IMG/VR virus record: IMGVR_UViG_2671181134_000012
Source of the DNA: a virus
Lineage: Duplodnaviria; Heunggongvirae; Uroviricota; Caudoviricetes
Length of the DNA stretch: 7,995 nt
Reading direction: 5' to 3' (one strand)
Part shown: positions 2,286-7,995 of the stretch, in pieces
How positions within the stretch are numbered: position 1 is the first letter of the stretch
Layout of the letters: each line of letters begins with the position of its first letter
Made by a program: the position numbers and the translations under genes
Notes under the pieces: model-generated
What the model saw: the letters and a program-made list of their open reading frames with translations, nothing else
The model's database searches: none
What the model was told of the DNA's origin: nothing

Positions 2286-2362
2286 AAATAACAACGCCCC
2301 GCAGTGGTGGCACACATGCAGGGCGTCTAACAACCAACGATAGCAACAGTATCGAGGTAGCT

Positions 2363-2566
2363 ATGTTAAATCATACCACACACCCGCAAGGGCGGGACTC
2401 GCACAACCTGAATAAATACATCTGGCGTTTTATCGCCCTGAGCACGGCACAACCGCGCGTGATTACCATCGAGGCCACCAGCGAACAGGAAACGCGTCAG
2501 CAATCTCCTGATGGCTGCGTGATGGTATTCGCCGCCCGTATTCGTCAGGGGGTGTTCCATGCCTGA
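2363..2566 (+). CDS. Hypothetical small protein (67 aa), first gene of a three-gene cassette
   Basis: ATG 2363 is preceded by GAGG with a 5-nt spacer. It is in frame with a long upstream open frame (1868-2566) that I consider non-coding. An alternative in-frame ATG at 2279 would give 95 aa. The stop TGA 2564-2566 overlaps the next start (ATGCCTGA). Confidence 0.5.
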   Translation: MLNHTTHPQGRDSHNLNKYIWRFIALSTAQPRVITIEATSEQETRQQSPDGCVMVFAARIRQGVFHA

Positions 2567-2879
2567 CATGACCAATTACCAGTACCTGATTAATCCGCAT
2601 TTTAACTGTGAGCATGATATTGCTAAAAAAGTTTATTCCGCTGCGGATGGGGCTACTGACAATATATCAATGGGTATTGCGTCAATTGGTAGCCTGATGT
2701 GGCATGCGTCAGAAAATAAGGAATATGACGAAAAGACCATGCGCATTGATATGGGTAATATCGGTTTGTTACTGGCAATGCTTGGGCAGTTTGATATTTC
2801 GTTACGGTGCACCATTGAAAATGCCACAGATGCATTAAATGCTATAAAGAAAGCGAATACTGATTCAAATCGGGGATAA
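2559..2879 (+). CDS. Hypothetical protein (106 aa), second gene of the cassette
   Basis: ATG 2559 overlaps the stop of the upstream ORF (translational coupling), with a G-rich SD-like stretch upstream. The protein has ordinary globular composition and no recognised motif. An alternative start is ATG 2568. Confidence 0.6.
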   Translation: MPDMTNYQYLINPHFNCEHDIAKKVYSAADGATDNISMGIASIGSLMWHASENKEYDEKTMRIDMGNIGLLLAMLGQFDISLRCTIENATDALNAIKKANTDSNRG

Positions 2880-2885
2880 ATAATC

Positions 2886-3185
2886 ATGAGAACTTATTTA
2901 TCTGGCTTGACTGCCAGCGGTTATGCACACCCCAAAATTATCCCCGGCGCTATTTATCTGGATAAGAACGGTAACAGAGTAACGGTAAAAGAACTGATGT
3001 TTGACCGTGTGTATTTTATCCGTGATGGCTATTCATTTCATAGTTCGCTGAACGTGGAGATCTTTATTAGCAGATTCAGGCGGGAAATCCCGCTTTCCAG
3101 AAATAACCATGTGTCATGTATCGATGTTGATAAAAAACTACAGGAACTGAAAAACATGATTGCCGCGTGGAGAGAGCAGAAATGA
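2886..3185 (+). CDS. Hypothetical protein (99 aa), third gene of the cassette, directly upstream of the primase gene
   Basis: ATG 2886 with GGGGA 9 nt upstream. The stop TGA 3183-3185 overlaps the primase ATG 3182 as ATGA, a classic coupling arrangement. No recognised motif. Confidence 0.6.
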   Translation: MRTYLSGLTASGYAHPKIIPGAIYLDKNGNRVTVKELMFDRVYFIRDGYSFHSSLNVEIFISRFRREIPLSRNNHVSCIDVDKKLQELKNMIAAWREQK

Positions 3186-4999
3186 AAAAAGCGCCAAATT
3201 TAAAACACCAGCCACGTGACAAAATGACGGAAGTCATCATTTTTGCGGGTAGTGATGCGTGGGCACATGCGAAGCAGTGGCAGGAACAGGACGGGCGACT
3301 GGCTGGCGATAACGTGCCACCTGTCTGGCTTGGAGAGCAACAACTTGCCGAACTGGACAACCTGCAAATCGTACCGGACGGACGCTATCGCGTGCGTCTC
3401 TATCAGGCGGGGTTATTGAGTCCGGGGCTTGTTAATACCATCGGGCAGAAACTGGCAGTGGCAGGTGTCAGGGATGCTGATTATTACCCTGAAGGAATGC
3501 ACAGCCAGAAACGGGAGAACTGGCGCGAATATCTGGAACGTGAACGGGCAGAGCAGGCGGAAAAGAAAAAGGTAGTTGAACTGCCTGTAAAGAAAAAAGA
3601 GCGGGTAAAAGACGATAACGCTTCATCACTGGCGCTTAACCAGATGGGAGCAAGTCAACGCGGCGAAGTTCTCCTGGCACATTATGGCGGTGAACTGGCG
3701 ATTCATGCTGACTCTGACACTGTTCACTATTACAACGGCGTTGTATGGGAGCCAGTACAGGATAAAGAATTACAGCGAGCTATGGCACAGATTTTCATTG
3801 ATGCGGAGATCAGCTATTCGCAGAACGCCATTAAATCGGCGGTCGATACCATGAAGTTAAGTTTGCCTGTAATGGGGAATACAGCCCGTAACCTGATTGG
3901 ATTCAGTAACGGTGTTTTTGATACCCGGACAGGCGATTTTCGGGAGCATAACAAAAACGACTGGTTGTTAATTGCCAGTGAATTACCTTTCAGCCCACCA
4001 GCAGAGGGGGAAACGCTGGCAACACATGCGCCGAATTTCTGGAAGTGGTTACGCCGTTCGGTGGCTGAGAATGACCGCAAGGCGGATCGCGTACTGGCTG
4101 CATTATTCATGGTGCTGGCGAACCGGTACGACTGGCAGTTATTCATTGAGGTAACAGGTCCAGGGGGAAGTGGTAAAAGCGTGATGGCGGAGATTTGCAC
4201 CATGCTGGCGGGTAAGGCCAACACGGTATCGGCAAGCATGAAGGCGCTGGAAGATGCCAGGGAACGCGCGTTAGTGGTTGGCTTTTCGCTGATTATCATG
4301 CCGGATATGACCCGTTACGCTGGTGATGGCGCAGGAATTAAGGCCATTACAGGCGGTGACAAGGTGGCAATCGACCCGAAGCATAAAGCCCCCTACTCAA
4401 CACGCATTCAGGCGGTAGTGTTGGCGGTGAACAATAACGCCATGTCATTCAGTGACCGCAGCGGGGGGATTTCACGTCGTCGGGTGATATTCAATTTTTC
4501 GGAGGTTGTACCGGAAAACGAACGCGACCCCATGCTGGCAGAAAAAATAGAAGGAGAGCTGGCGGTTGTGATTCGCCACCTGCTTACTCGTTTTTCTGAC
4601 CAGGACGAAGCTAAACGCCTGCTGTATGAGCAGCAGAAATCAGAAGAAGCTCTGGTGATAAAACGCGAGGGCGATTCGCTGGTGGACTTCTGCGGCTATC
4701 TCATGTCGTCGATAATGTGTGATGGTCTGTTAGTGGGTAATGCCGAAATTATTCCGTTCAGTCCGCGCAGGTATCTTTATCACGCCTATCTGGCATATAT
4801 GAGGGCACACGGATTCGGTAAACCTGTAACACTGACGCGCTTCGGTAAAGATATGCCGGGGGCAATGGCGGAATATGGCAGGGAGTATATGAAACGGAAA
4901 ACGAAGCACGGTTTGCGTTCAAATGTGACCCTGACAGAGGATTCAGAAGACTGGATGCCATCATGTGCATCGGTCACAAATGACGATGGAAAAAATTAA
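3182..4999 (+). CDS. Replication initiator: P4 alpha-like primase/helicase (D5_N-like region plus SF3 helicase NTPase domain)
   Basis: 605-aa ORF from ATG 3182 (the track's 3167 start is GTG). It carries Walker A (TGPGGSGKS), a hydrophobic stretch ending in Asp (LVVGFSLIIMPDM) as Walker B, and the SF3 motif C asparagines (LAVNNNAMSF). This architecture matches the P4-family phage/plasmid primase C-terminal domain. A TGTTCACC iteron array lies immediately downstream. The N-terminal ~150 aa are not assigned. Confidence 0.85.
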   Translation: MKKAPNLKHQPRDKMTEVIIFAGSDAWAHAKQWQEQDGRLAGDNVPPVWLGEQQLAELDNLQIVPDGRYRVRLYQAGLLSPGLVNTIGQKLAVAGVRDADYYPEGMHSQKRENWREYLERERAEQAEKKKVVELPVKKKERVKDDNASSLALNQMGASQRGEVLLAHYGGELAIHADSDTVHYYNGVVWEPVQDKELQRAMAQIFIDAEISYSQNAIKSAVDTMKLSLPVMGNTARNLIGFSNGVFDTRTGDFREHNKNDWLLIASELPFSPPAEGETLATHAPNFWKWLRRSVAENDRKADRVLAALFMVLANRYDWQLFIEVTGPGGSGKSVMAEICTMLAGKANTVSASMKALEDARERALVVGFSLIIMPDMTRYAGDGAGIKAITGGDKVAIDPKHKAPYSTRIQAVVLAVNNNAMSFSDRSGGISRRRVIFNFSEVVPENERDPMLAEKIEGELAVVIRHLLTRFSDQDEAKRLLYEQQKSEEALVIKREGDSLVDFCGYLMSSIMCDGLLVGNAEIIPFSPRRYLYHAYLAYMRAHGFGKPVTLTRFGKDMPGAMAEYGREYMKRKTKHGLRSNVTLTEDSEDWMPSCASVTNDDGKN

Positions 5000-5010
5000 A
5001 CTTATGGAAT

Positions 5011-5241
5011 AACTGTTCACCACTGTTCACCCTGCAATAAATGTCTTTTATATCAGTATATTATAGGGTGAACAGTTATTTATGAACTGTTCACCAAACT
5101 ATTCACTGTTCACCTTTTTGATTCTTTATTGAGCTTTAAGGGTGAACAGTGGTGAACAGTTGGTGAATAGTTTTTGTGAAACTATTCACCCCTTAACATC
5201 ATGAATAAAAAGGGAAAATTGCAAAAGGTGAACAGGTGAAG
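5011..5241. repeat. Iteron array / candidate replication origin: at least 8 perfect and several degenerate copies of TGTTCACC (GGTGAACA) in both orientations
   Basis: Perfect copies on + at 5013-5021, 5023-5031, 5087-5095 and 5106-5114; on - at 5067-5075, 5141-5149, 5151-5159 and 5227-5235. Degenerate copies at 5162-5172 and 5180-5190. The 22-mer AACTGTTCACCACTGTTCACCC (5011-5032) is the exact reverse complement of 5140-5161. There are two inverted pairs with 7-nt spacers (5067-5095 and 5162-5190) and an AT-rich stretch at 5033-5066. Confidence 0.8.
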
Positions 5242-5286
5242 GGTTGAAATGCAAAAATTTTATTTTATTGCTGTGAGGTAAAGCCT

Positions 5287-5526
5287 GTGACAACGAAGCA
5301 CGCCAAAAAACCACAATCTCACGCCCTTGATTTGACAGAACACTGGCTGAGGGTGGCGATAAAAATCATCGACCGCAACGCCGGGGAAGGATACGCGAAA
5401 GCACATCCCGAACTGATAAGCGCATTCATGACCACGACGGCGGCAAACTTTGCCACGCTGACAGAACGGGAGATTGCCGAAGCGGAACAGGTAACAACCA
5501 TCAACGTTAAAAGCGCTGGAGAATAA
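5287..5526 (+). CDS. Hypothetical protein (79 aa, GTG start)
   Basis: GTG 5287 with GAGG 8 nt upstream, followed by an intrinsic terminator. The overlapping minus-strand ORFs have Cys/Ser-rich antisense-like composition, so the + strand is preferred. Confidence 0.5.
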   Translation: MTTKHAKKPQSHALDLTEHWLRVAIKIIDRNAGEGYAKAHPELISAFMTTTAANFATLTEREIAEAEQVTTINVKSAGE

Positions 5527-5544
5527 CCGAAGTAGTGAACACAT

Positions 5545-5568
5545 AGCCGGAGCAATCCGGCTTTTTTT
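5545..5568 (+). terminator. Rho-independent terminator (AGCCGG agcaat CCGGCT followed by TTTTTTT)
   Basis: 6-bp GC-rich stem, 6-nt loop and a 7-T run, read directly, 19 nt after the stop of the 79-aa ORF. Confidence 0.7.
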
Positions 5569-5602
5569 CGATCTCGCATATCTTAAAAAATGGTTGATTG
5601 AT

Positions 5603-5608
5603 TATAAT
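5603..5608 (+). promoter_or_regulatory. Candidate -10 hexamer TATAAT for the downstream small-ORF / terS / capsid operon
   Basis: Consensus TATAAT about 50 nt upstream of GTG 5657, with an A-tract upstream. No convincing -35 was found, so this is tentative. Confidence 0.3.
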
Positions 5609-5656
5609 CTATCGAAAATACTGATTATTAGATGATAAGCATCAGGAGGAAACAAA

Positions 5657-5851
5657 GTGGAACAGATAAAGCAAAGCGCTACCGTGATGATTGATCACGA
5701 GATCCTAAACGAGCTTAAAAAACTTCAATTCGATGTTATTCGCCGGATGAATGAAGCTGGTATATACGGCAGAGCCGCCACGCCAACAGTAGGCCATCTT
5801 GCTCGCGTGCTGTTACGCGAACGCCTGGGCATTGCAACAGGTGAGGAATAA
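5657..5851 (+). CDS. Hypothetical small protein (64 aa, GTG start), possibly DNA-binding
   Basis: Strong SD (AGGAGG, 5643-5648) 8 nt upstream of GTG 5657. The N-terminal segment (SATVMIDHEILNELKKL) has a strand-then-helix pattern that could be RHH-like, but this is weak. Confidence 0.5.
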   Translation: MEQIKQSATVMIDHEILNELKKLQFDVIRRMNEAGIYGRAATPTVGHLARVLLRERLGIATGEE

Positions 5852-5853
5852 CA

Positions 5854-6015
5854 ATGGCTATCACAGAACGCGAGGCAAGCATCATTAAAGCCATTGGCGA
5901 GGAAACAAGAGACACGATAGCGCCATTAATGGAAAAGATCGCAGAGCTTGAGAGACGAATAAACAAGCTGAGTGATGAAGTTGAAGGCCTGATCTCGTTA
6001 CTCGGTGAGCAATGA
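5854..6015 (+). CDS. Hypothetical small protein (53 aa), predicted helical / coiled-coil; absent from the supplied ORF track
   Basis: ATG 5854, 2 nt after the stop of the upstream ORF, with GAGGAA just upstream. The translation (MAITEREASIIKAIGEETRDTIAPLMEKIAELERRINKLSDEVEGLISLLGEQ) has heptad-like hydrophobic spacing. It is a short ORF, so coding status is uncertain. Confidence 0.4.
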   Translation: MAITEREASIIKAIGEETRDTIAPLMEKIAELERRINKLSDEVEGLISLLGEQ

Positions 6016-6070
6016 CAGGGGGGGAGTGTTCCGGCCGGAAAGTCGATCGCCCTGGACACCGCCCCCCGTC
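6016..6070. other. GC-rich structured element: G7 run (6018-6024), 12-bp palindrome TTCCGGCCGGAA (6029-6040), CGATCG (6044-6049), C6 run (6062-6067)
   Basis: Read directly. The G-run and C-run could pair to enclose the palindrome. It sits between the 53-aa ORF and terS; a cos/pac-type or regulatory role is possible but unproven. Confidence 0.4.
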
Positions 6071-6095
6071 TCATTCGTAGAAAATTTTGCTTTTC

Positions 6096-6121
6096 AAAAA
6101 AGTTACACGAAAAGTTACACC
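6096..6121 (+). repeat. Two direct copies of AAAAGTTACAC with 12-bp period in the terS leader
   Basis: AGTTACAC at 6101-6108 and 6113-6120, non-coding, 22 nt upstream of terS ATG 6143. Confidence 0.6.
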
Positions 6122-6142
6122 CCCTCAAAACGAGGTTTTTGC

Positions 6143-6631
6143 ATGGCATTAACGACCAAAAAAAAGCGGTTTGCTGATGCGTTATCAAGGGGCGCAAATC
6201 CCACGGAAGCCGCTATACATGCGGGATACAGCGAAAAGACCGCAAGGGTTAAAGGCTGGCAGCTATCCAATGATCCTGAGGTGAAAAAGTATCTTAAGGC
6301 TGTAACTTCTGATGTAACTTTTCAGGTTACAAAACCGAAAAAAGTTACAAAGAAAGTTACCGAAAAAGTTACACCGGAACGGGCATCAATTAACACCATT
6401 GAGATGATGGATAACGGCCTACCCGACCCCATCAAAGCAATGGGCAGGATACTGATTGACAACATGGACACAGATCCAAAACTGGCTTTAGATGCCGCGT
6501 TTAAGCTGGCCCAGTTCACCCACCGCAAGATCGGCAGCATTGGGAAAAAAGAGGTTAAAAAACTCAATGCCGCTAGTGTCTCCTCAAATCGGTTCCCCAT
6601 CCCTAAGCCACCAACAGGCTTAAGACACTGA
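6143..6631 (+). CDS. terS: Terminase small subunit (SF6 G1P-like, Terminase_2-type N-terminal HTH)
   Basis: ATG 6143 with GAGG 6 nt upstream. The N-terminus (KKKRFADALSRGANPTEAAIHAGYSEKTARVKGWQLSNDPEVKKYL) closely resembles the SF6-like TerS DNA-binding domain (KQERFIEEY...NATKAAIAAGYS...A). A Lys-rich repeat linker (KKVTKKVTEKVT) follows. Confidence 0.82.
   Translation: MALTTKKKRFADALSRGANPTEAAIHAGYSEKTARVKGWQLSNDPEVKKYLKAVTSDVTFQVTKPKKVTKKVTEKVTPERASINTIEMMDNGLPDPIKAMGRILIDNMDTDPKLALDAAFKLAQFTHRKIGSIGKKEVKKLNAASVSSNRFPIPKPPTGLRH
6300..6375. repeat. 12-bp periodic AGTTAC array inside terS: inverted copies GTAACT at 6302 and 6314, direct copies GGTTAC 6325 and AGTTAC at 6343, 6355 and 6367
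   Basis: Read directly. The period equals that of the upstream leader copies. It is encoded as an xxVT peptide repeat (AVTSDVTFQVTKPKKVTKKVTEKVTP). Confidence 0.6.
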
Positions 6632-6642
6632 GGTATCGAACT

Positions 6643-6804
6643 ATGAGCGAATACATCACAGACCCTATTGATGTACTCACGGAAATCATGAACGACAAGC
6701 AGCAGCCAACCGAAATACGGTTACAGGCTGCCGCTGTTCTGATGCCATATTTTCACGAAACCCTAACCCCATGTTACCAGGAGGAAGAAGATGATGATTT
6801 CTAA
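6643..6804 (+). CDS. Hypothetical small protein (53 aa) with acidic C-terminus (QEEEDDDF); absent from the supplied ORF track
   Basis: ATG 6643 with GAGG 9 nt upstream. Its 3' end overlaps the capsid gene start by 14 nt. Short ORF, uncertain. Confidence 0.4.
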   Translation: MSEYITDPIDVLTEIMNDKQQPTEIRLQAAAVLMPYFHETLTPCYQEEEDDDF

Positions 6805-7717
6805 AAACATGAAAGGCGTGTCGGCAGTTCGCGCCGCCAGCGTGCTTACATCGTGTAAATTCAGCCATGCAGACGCAATTGAAATGACGAAAAAAAATGA
6901 TCCGGCAGTATCGAAATTTCTTGAAAAATCCATCGTCAACAGAATGACTACGGATAACATGCCGTCGCTGGTGGCAGAGCCGATAGTAAGAGAGCTTGGC
7001 GAGTATATTTTTTCGCAGTCTGTACCAGGCAAGCTAATCAGCAGCGCGCTGAATCTTCCTTTTGGCGCAAAATTGCAGTCAATATCAGGCAAGGGTAGTA
7101 AATGGCTTAAAGAAGCCGAAGAAATCCCAATCAAAGAGGGAGAAGTAAACGAAAGCGCGCTAAAACTGTGCAAACTCGGCGCTATTGTGATGCTGAATAA
7201 CGAGCTAATCAAATTTAGCACCCCTGGTACCAATTCAGCGATCAGAGACTTAATCACATCGGAATCGGTGAAAGAAATAGATAAAAAATTTCTTTCCAGT
7301 GACCAGGAGGTGGCTGGCGTATCCCCTGAGGGTGTGCTTAATGGTGCTGATGAGGCCGAAAACTTCATAGAGCTTTTCAAAAAGCACATAGCGAACGGTA
7401 ACACGCTTTCCACGTCGTCGCTAATCTTGCCCGTAGAAAACGCCTTACAGCTTACTGATGCTGAGTTCTGGCAGATAGAGCTTTTGAGAATACCGGTAAT
7501 TGTGAGCGAACAGGCTGATCGCATGATGCTGATAGACGCTCAAAAGCTGATTATTAACGTTGAAGCCACGGTTATAACCCCAACTGATGAGGCGGTAATA
7601 AAAACCGAATCAGGGGCGGTTAGCCTTTTCCAGAATGACGCTACAGCGTTCAGGGCAATCACCTATTGCGGATGGCAAAAACTCGATAAGGCCGTCACCG
7701 TTCTGGCGAAAAGCTGA
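6791..7717 (+). CDS. Putative major capsid protein, HK97-fold (Phage_capsid-like), 308 aa
   Basis: AGGAGG (6779-6784) 6 nt upstream of ATG 6791. The central region (KLGAIVMLNNELIKFSTPG...IDKKFLSSDQEVAGVSPEGVLNGADEAENF) aligns by eye with the HK97 gp5 region (IAHWVQASRQVMDDAPML...GLALKEEGQLLNGDGTGDNLEG). Its size fits a capsid core without a delta domain. Not confirmed by any search. Confidence 0.6.
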   Translation: MMISKNMKGVSAVRAASVLTSCKFSHADAIEMTKKNDPAVSKFLEKSIVNRMTTDNMPSLVAEPIVRELGEYIFSQSVPGKLISSALNLPFGAKLQSISGKGSKWLKEAEEIPIKEGEVNESALKLCKLGAIVMLNNELIKFSTPGTNSAIRDLITSESVKEIDKKFLSSDQEVAGVSPEGVLNGADEAENFIELFKKHIANGNTLSTSSLILPVENALQLTDAEFWQIELLRIPVIVSEQADRMMLIDAQKLIINVEATVITPTDEAVIKTESGAVSLFQNDATAFRAITYCGWQKLDKAVTVLAKS

Positions 7718-7734
7718 TTTTTCCGGCATCAATC

Positions 7735-7758
7735 CAGATATGGTGATCCCCATATCGG
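7735..7758. repeat. Imperfect hairpin (GATATGG tgatcc CCATATC) downstream of the capsid gene
   Basis: 7-bp stem and 6-nt loop read directly, with no clear T-run. Weak terminator or operator. Confidence 0.3.
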
Positions 7759-7797
7759 GATAATTACGAAATTTTCGCAGTTTAATAGGTGACCAGA

Positions 7798-7995
7798 ATG
7801 ACAGAAGCCGAAAATTATGTGCGTGTTGTTGCTGAGGTGATGCGCCGTGATGGTATCCAGCTTAATGATGTGGATATGCGCAACATACGGATCCGCGTTC
7901 TTGAAATGCTGGCCTACCGTCGCCGCGTGCAGACGTACAGGGAAAAAGCAAAAATTACGTACCACTGGAAGAGGCAGGAGCGGTTACGGCGGTAA
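7798..7995 (+). CDS. Hypothetical small basic protein (65 aa), Arg-rich C-terminus
   Basis: ATG 7798 with AGGTGA 7 nt upstream (the track start 7789 is GTG). The stop TAA is at the last three bases of the window. Translation: MTEAENYVRVVAEVMRRDGIQLNDVDMRNIRIRVLEMLAYRRRVQTYREKAKITYHWKRQERLRR. Confidence 0.5.
   Translation: MTEAENYVRVVAEVMRRDGIQLNDVDMRNIRIRVLEMLAYRRRVQTYREKAKITYHWKRQERLRR

Follow-up and report, generated by a model that had tools for sequence, protein, structure and literature searches.

The capsid-like gene at positions 6791–7717 of the IMG/VR virus record IMGVR_UViG_2671181134_000012, a stretch of 7,995 nucleotides that was analysed in full and is referred to here as the window, belongs to a classical AlpA-type, Gram-negative phage-inducible chromosomal island (PICI) of ~8.9 kb. 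Its product, 308 residues in length, is a diverged, free-standing paralogue of the major capsid protein (MCP) of HK97-like, HNH/cos-type lambdoid phages of Shiga-toxin-producing Escherichia coli (STEC), the phage relatives being of the Stx2 phage 1717, BP-4795-like and PPompW types. The protein is predicted to display a complete HK97 fold and, judged by its alignments, is a capsid protein that lacks the scaffold (delta) or protease part. It probably co-assembles with the coat protein of a helper phage, redirecting or sabotaging helper capsid assembly. The original prediction had described a small terminase gene (terS), a 53-residue acidic open reading frame (ORF) and the 308-residue capsid-like ORF, whose start the acidic ORF overlaps, with no gene for a large terminase (TerL), portal or protease in between, and this gene order was confirmed.

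Fold and origin of the capsid-like protein

Sequence profiles identify the product of the gene as a capsid protein modestly, though beyond chance. The Pfam family PF05065 (Phage_capsid) matches residues 101–301 with E=1.3e-6 and 28.4 bits (cut-off 24.2), the PHROG major head families 617 and 10 match with E=6.5e-10 and 1.9e-8, and TIGR01554 reaches 26.5 bits, just below its cut-off of 27.5. RefSeq names the product 'phage major capsid protein' and places the start at the second ATG, at 6794; an AGGAGG motif is located 6 nt upstream of 6791. A word-indexed homologue search gave only three clusters, and the usable alignment came from an exhaustive profile search, which collected 1108 relatives of the protein. 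The AlphaFold2 (AF2) model, built from a 56-sequence alignment, has a mean predicted local distance difference test (pLDDT) of 92.5 and a predicted template modelling score (pTM) of 0.89. It comprises a helical N-terminal region, an α/β A-domain and a P-domain sheet, with a long β-hairpin (residues 94–123) at the position of the E-loop and a long spine helix (residues 145–167). All top Foldseek matches are HK97-fold capsid or encapsulin shell proteins, among them Bxb1, the SaPI1 capsid, the SaPIbov5 procapsid and HK97, with E-values from 3e-13 to 1e-9. The model shows the HK97 fold to be complete, with N-arm, E-loop, spine helix and A and P domains all predicted. The capsid-like character claimed originally is borne out by the profile matches and by this model, and the proposed comparison of a predicted structure with the HK97 domains returned the HK97 fold.

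The phage relatives of the protein were identified by tblastn against phage genomes, where residues 8–305 match at 23–26% identity. The matches in E. coli phages fall in the C-terminal half of 645-residue proteins that are encoded by Stx1a-, Stx2c- and Stx2a-converting phages and by PPompW prophages, and that are annotated as 'prohead protease' or 'major head protein/prohead protease'. In one of them, an S78 protease::MCP fusion, residues 291–633 of 645 align with residues 8–305 of the island protein at 24% identity (E=8e-18), while the N-terminal part of the fusion is the S78 prohead protease. The MCPs of Stx/lambdoid phages (e.g. Stx2 phage 1717 gp58, PPompW) belong to the same Pfam family as the island protein and are homologous to it over the whole mature region. 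In contrast to the fusion, the island protein lacks the N-terminal 290 residues, which hold protease and scaffold, and carries several short loop deletions. Its N-terminus begins where homologues of 440–467 residues end a coiled-coil delta domain of ~100 residues. The claim that the protein has no obvious N-terminal scaffolding domain therefore stands, since it aligns only to residues 291–633 of the 645-residue fusion and starts after the delta region. The protein does keep three short helices at its N-terminus (residues 9–50), which it shares with the phage proteins and which terminate in a conserved LEK|S motif (K46/S47); this motif might be a maturation cleavage site. No scaffold, portal or protease with which the island could build a shell of its own was found in it: the delta/fusion region is absent and there is no neighbouring scaffold gene.

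The small terminase points to the same phages. Island TerS displays 47% identity to TerS of the Stx/PPompW phages, the same phage set that is matched by the capsid-like protein, and is closer still, at 57%, to its counterpart in a complete Hafnia prophage that shares their head module. The head module of those phages is arranged as HNH-terS-terL-protease::MCP-portal, and in such an HK97-like arrangement the HNH nuclease assists cos cleavage. Because the capsid-like protein and TerS both match the same phages, one helper type is indicated.

The capsid-like gene is intact and under purifying selection. The block formed by terS, the 53-residue ORF and the capsid-like gene is present at full length in 220 of 5426 complete E. 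coli genomes, each copy at least 96.8% identical, with no pseudogene flag among the matches listed for this set of 220 genomes, and many of the carriers are STEC serotypes (O157:H7, O111:H8, O103:H2 and similar). Pairwise ratios of nonsynonymous to synonymous substitution rates (dN/dS), counted where pairs had enough differences, are 0.08–0.18 for the capsid-like gene, 0.15–0.35 for the 53-residue ORF and 0.12–0.23 for terS. In lineages whose capsid-like proteins are 49–51% identical to that of the island, terS and the capsid-like gene are still adjacent or split only by a small ORF. More distant stand-alone relatives, of 315–321 residues and 31–40% identity, are all located in satellite-like loci, one of them together with AlpA, a helicase and a tailspike gene. 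In locus L009, which encodes a relative of 49% identity, a mid-gene large-terminase fragment (3760–4260) starts 325 nt past the capsid-like gene; the fragment suggests that this satellite was inserted in or beside a prophage terL, in a helper-embedded configuration.

Island layout and the packaging block

All genes of the window are placed on the + strand in one orientation, from the integrase through AlpA, the D5 primase and terS to the capsid homologue.

1–1239, + strand: tyrosine integrase (PF00589, PF13356)
1649–1858, + strand: AlpA-family regulator, a hallmark of Gram-negative PICIs, downstream of the integrase (PF05930, E=7.9e-18)
Between AlpA and the D5 primase, + strand: small ORFs, including a DUF4222 protein
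3167–4999, + strand: D5-type primase/helicase, the island replication module (PF08706 (D5_N), PF03288 (Pox_D5), PF19263 (DUF5906); phrog_864, E=2e-193)
5287–5526, + strand: small ORF
5657–6015, + strand: two small genes (64 residues, and a coiled-coil protein of 53 residues; starts at 5657 and 5854) that open the late block
6099–6372, + strand: six AAAGTTAC repeats (repeat family D2), two just upstream of the terS ATG and four within terS, where they encode the KKVT-repeat linker
6143–6631, + strand: terS, small terminase, 162 residues (PF03592, E=2.6e-10; phrog_641, E=1.2e-43)
6643–6804, + strand: acidic ORF of 53 residues
6791–7717, + strand: capsid-like gene, 308 residues (307 from the ATG at 6794), the 'capsid morphogenesis' component of the PICI (PF05065; PHROG 617/10)
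7789–7995, + strand: last ORF, 68 residues, phrog_1561 (unknown function), given by RefSeq as a fragment without its N-terminus

Neither terL nor a portal or protease gene is found anywhere in the window by the ORF list or by the Pfam and PHROG searches, and none is found further downstream in the two closest complete genomes. Similarly, tail, holin and head-tail connector genes are absent from the window and from the full island of these two genomes. The downstream context is read from these closest relatives, the best complete E. coli match to the window displaying 98.5% identity over 97% of it. RefSeq gives the same genes in E. coli O157 AR-0427, and the two closest complete genomes share the same layout, with the island flanked by cspD/yljB on one side and clpS on the other. 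The island is bounded by att direct repeats at a distance of 8886 bp from each other, the left one just ahead of the integrase gene (locus L001) and the right one just before clpS, so that it ends ~650 bp beyond the end of the window. Since the islands of the closest genomes end without the missing head genes, their absence is a property of the whole element and not the result of a window cut. The portal and terL genes that the original prediction proposed to look for downstream are accordingly missing up to the att repeat, and its placement of the locus in a satellite rather than a phage head module agrees with the five-component PICI layout found here. Its suggestion of a rearranged, minimal head module needs correction: of a helper-type module, terS and a capsid homologue are the only genes kept; they cannot form a self-sufficient module, because portal, terL and protease are lacking, and the layout is standard for Gram-negative PICIs.

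Aligned with the closest complete genome, positions 2323–7995 are 99.8% identical and positions 1–1928 (integrase to AlpA) 94% identical, while 1929–2322 remain unaligned; judged by this unequal identity of the left arm and the remainder, the island is a recombinant mosaic. A terminator-like hairpin with a T-run (5545–5562), positioned after the ORF at 5287–5526 and ahead of the two genes at 5657–6015, may separate the replication block from the late block of packaging and capsid genes. The genes at 5657–6015 display 33–34% identity to two ORFs directly upstream of the capsid-like gene in locus L011 (9299–9667), and the two may be functionally tied to the capsid-like gene. L011 is a distant satellite without terS, in which a tailspike gene follows the capsid-like gene. 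An identification of the ORF at 7789–7995 as PerC was rejected, as it has no similarity to EcCICFT073 PerC and no Pfam match. A 19-nt sequence, TGGTGATCCCCATATCGGG, lies at 7741–7759, just past the stop codon of the capsid-like gene, and a second copy is located 769 bp downstream near attR (the copies in L001 are at 14542–14560 and 15311–15329). The non-coding tail of the island also contains a 38-nt repeat pair (L001, 14791–15047).

TerS displays an N-terminal helix-turn-helix, a KKVT-repeat linker and a C-terminal helical hairpin that, by alignment, is nearly identical to the TerS hairpin of the candidate helpers. Its true start is probably the ATG at 6143, in agreement with RefSeq and the PHROG alignment, and the GTG at 6005 of the mechanical ORF list, which would give a TerS of 208 residues, is probably an over-extension disfavoured by homology and RefSeq. 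The AF2 model of TerS has low overall confidence (pTM 0.33) and was used for secondary structure only; it places a two-helix hairpin (residues 96–107 and 112–126) after the disordered KKVT-repeat linker. The motif AARGTTAC occurs seven times in the window, where 0.5 matches would be expected, and six of the occurrences fall within a 274-bp stretch. The copy number of the AAAGTTAC repeat differs among TerS homologues, and the motif also occurs upstream of terS in locus L022, which represents a lineage with a 62% identical TerS. The AAAGTTAC cluster is a candidate for an island-specific terminase recognition (cos/pac) site.

The 53-residue ORF is a real, conserved gene. It overlaps the start of the capsid-like gene by 14 nt (ATGATGATTTCTAA), and its product ends in the acidic tail EEEDDDF. 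A lineage whose capsid-like protein is 49% identical retains the ORF with the same overlap and 51% identity; the L022 lineage lacks it, and there 10 nt separate terS from the capsid-like gene. The ORF matches positions 89–126 of phrog_641 (TerS) with E=8.2e-7, and hhalign places its residues 1–41 on TerS 89–130 with P=0.0028 and a low probability of 10.9% from very thin alignments. BLASTP of the ORF against island or phage TerS gave no match, the resemblance being visible only to profile methods. The similarity to TerS thus stays modest, given the low hhalign probability and the empty BLASTP. The matched TerS segment is invariant between the island and phage TerS proteins, and in TerS proteins of this general build the hairpin is the oligomerisation core. 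The 53-residue protein may be a mimic of the TerS hairpin with an acidic tail. It was originally considered as a possible scaffold; it carries no scaffold signature and, given its likeness to the TerS hairpin, is more likely to act on the terminase.

Proposed role of the protein in helper capsid assembly

In the reading that we favour, co-assembly with the helper coat protein, the helper would induce the island and the capsid-like protein would be made together with island TerS. As the protein has no scaffold domain of its own, co-assembly with the helper capsid protein would be its only way of entering procapsids. There it would take pentamer positions, parallel to Ccm of SaPIbov5. Ccm, which is homologous to the capsid protein of its helper and operates with helpers of the cos/HNH kind, sits at the pentamers inside the shell, gives rise to small isometric capsids and is unable to build shells by itself (PMC8569155). 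Co-assembly would alter the capsid geometry, probably to smaller shells, which would suit multimers of the 8.9-kb island genome and exclude a helper genome of 45–60 kb; by this change of shell geometry island transfer would be aided and the helper hindered. Island TerS would redirect the TerL/HNH machine of the helper to the island, possibly via the AAAGTTAC repeats, and the look-alike of the TerS hairpin would act on the terminase more probably than on the shell.

Several observations weigh against co-assembly. At only ~24%, the identity between the protein and the capsid protein of the putative helper is low for a subunit that has to fit the helper lattice. Ccm keeps a cleavable N-terminal delta domain, whereas the island protein starts after the delta region. 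In EcCICFT073, the model E. coli PICI and the only one from this species to have been tested, deletion of the capsid homologue c1499 left interference with lambda unrelieved and the island used full-size capsids (PMC6092414), although this result is not directly transferable, because the c1499 family is unrelated in sequence. PICI capsid genes are moreover reported not to be required for transfer (PMC6092414, PMC10111431). Finally, two relatives of 31–35% identity adjoin a portal gene (L013, 6517–9057; L014, 7511–9769), so that some family members may build shells. Both of these satellite-like loci carry a D5 or VapE primase together with AlpA or HNH, and they could be intermediates between classical and capsid-forming PICIs.

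The reported dispensability of PICI capsid genes for transfer is also what would be expected if the protein were a pure poison subunit, a considerably less probable role in which the scaffold-less homologue is built into helper capsomers and makes procapsid assembly fail or go astray, with no dedicated small capsids formed and no help to island transfer, helper yield being lowered and the host population protected. Its fold and its homology to the helper-type capsid protein, the loss of the scaffold/protease part and the strong interference of classical PICIs with their helpers (PMC6092414) fit such a role as well. It is opposed by the c1499 deletion, which brought no relief of interference, although in a different family, and by the tight linkage to terS across diverged lineages, which suggests a role in the packaging of the island itself; a general assembly poison would in addition take away the capsids that the island needs.

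That the protein is instead the main shell protein of island-specific small capsids, assembling scaffold-free in the manner of encapsulins and receiving portal, terminase, protease and tails from the helper, is improbable. The complete predicted fold and the relatives beside portal genes are compatible with it, and capsid-forming PICIs (cf-PICIs) demonstrate that satellites are able to build their own capsids (bioRxiv 10.1101/2022.09.08.507074). However, the island is devoid of portal, protease, terL and head-tail connectors, the defining parts of cf-PICIs (PMC10085698), Ccm alone gives no capsids (PMC8569155), and the capsid genes of PICIs and cf-PICIs separate almost perfectly in published trees (PMC10085698).

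The selection data make it very unlikely that the gene is a decaying relic of a captured phage late block or of a degraded cf-PICI, with no present function. PICIs do capture helper late genes and later lose most of them (PMC10111431), and the next ORF (7789–7995) is annotated as truncated; the low dN/dS of the capsid-like gene, its full length in 220 genomes, none of whose listed matches is flagged as a pseudogene, the architecture kept in lineages of only 49–51% identity and the confident fold prediction all speak against decay. Least credible of all is the original proposal of an external, size-determining scaffold that binds the outside of helper capsomers and does not join the lattice, a device that satellites do use (P4 Sid; bioRxiv 10.1101/2022.09.08.507074), since the protein is predicted to hold the whole HK97 shell fold with E-loop, spine helix and A and P domains, and the capsid-homologue precedent, Ccm, is a lattice component inside the shell (PMC8569155).

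Comparison with known satellites

The window corresponds to the 'Type A' PICI of SatelliteFinder (de Sousa et al. 2023, PMC10085698); E. coli accounts for 97% of the 375 elements in this class. All five core components (integrase, AlpA, primase-replicase, capsid morphogenesis and small terminase) are present, no forbidden component occurs, and there is no structural difference from the class. By the published Type A layout, the terS-capsid arrangement is therefore ordinary for its class. A terS with a capsid homologue and no other head gene is the standard Gram-negative PICI layout (PMC10085698, PMC10111431), and a major capsid gene, the commonest late gene of such islands, occurs in 21 of the 29 that serve as reference (PMC10111431). 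In view of the catalogued Type A layout and the RefSeq name 'phage major capsid protein', we regard the arrangement as already known. Four features were not found described in the literature searched: the link of the capsid and TerS genes to Stx-type lambdoid phages of the HNH/cos kind, the precise form of the truncation, the TerS-hairpin mini-protein and the AAAGTTAC cluster at terS. The island itself is not described in a 2009 account of O157 prophages (PMC2669165).

The island family is common in STEC, and by homology its candidate helpers are Stx-converting and related lambdoid prophages. If the helpers are indeed of the Stx type, the island could affect Stx phage yield and horizontal transfer in these pathogens. 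With a candidate helper type, a delta-less paralogue, a mini-protein and a candidate repeat, it offers a good system for the role of capsid homologues in PICIs of Enterobacteria.

EcCICFT073 is of the same type and shares the backbone of the island (integrase, AlpA, YlcI, Icd-like, DUF4222 and D5 primase). It also carries a lone helper-type capsid homologue in its late region, c1499, together with c1500, a homologue of the decoration protein gpD. c1499 belongs to the lambda gpE family (PF03864) and gave no significant alignment with the island capsid-like protein (best E=3). In further contrast, EcCICFT073 has Rpp in place of TerS and exploits lambda and phi80. The two capsid homologues fit a pattern in which each PICI carries a capsid homologue of the type of its own helper. 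PmCI172 likewise carries a capsid homologue, and it makes small capsids (PMC6092414). The cf-PICIs (EcCIEDL933, EcCI2) encode terL, portal, protease, HNH and head-tail connectors and build their own capsids, whereas the island has none of these. P4 Sid is an elongated helical protein of the Sid/Psu-like kind that forms an external cage, and the island protein is instead modelled as an HK97 shell fold.

The nearest precedent is Ccm. Both proteins are satellite-encoded homologues of an HK97-fold helper capsid protein, and neither island carries portal, terL or protease. SaPIbov5 exploits an HK97-like cos phage for which an HNH nuclease is essential, and the candidate helpers of the present island carry HNH as well. 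Co-assembly with the helper capsid protein, probable for the island protein, would be a further likeness. In contrast, there is no detectable sequence relationship between the two proteins, which are 9–12% identical in structural alignment; SaPIbov5 has the helper cos site and no terS, while this island has its own TerS; and the small capsids shown for Ccm are a prediction for this island. A tentative extension of the parallel would join the capsid paralogue and the 53-residue mini-protein in a conserved two-part hijacking cassette against HK97-like, HNH/cos lambdoid phages, including Stx-converting ones. The paralogue would seed or cap altered shells, and the mini-protein would insert into or cap the TerS oligomer of the helper, stopping helper packaging while island TerS takes TerL. 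Such a cassette might conceivably be a Gram-negative counterpart of Ccm plus Ppi/Rpp, with a TerS mimic of a new kind that copies the oligomerisation hairpin and not the DNA-binding domain.

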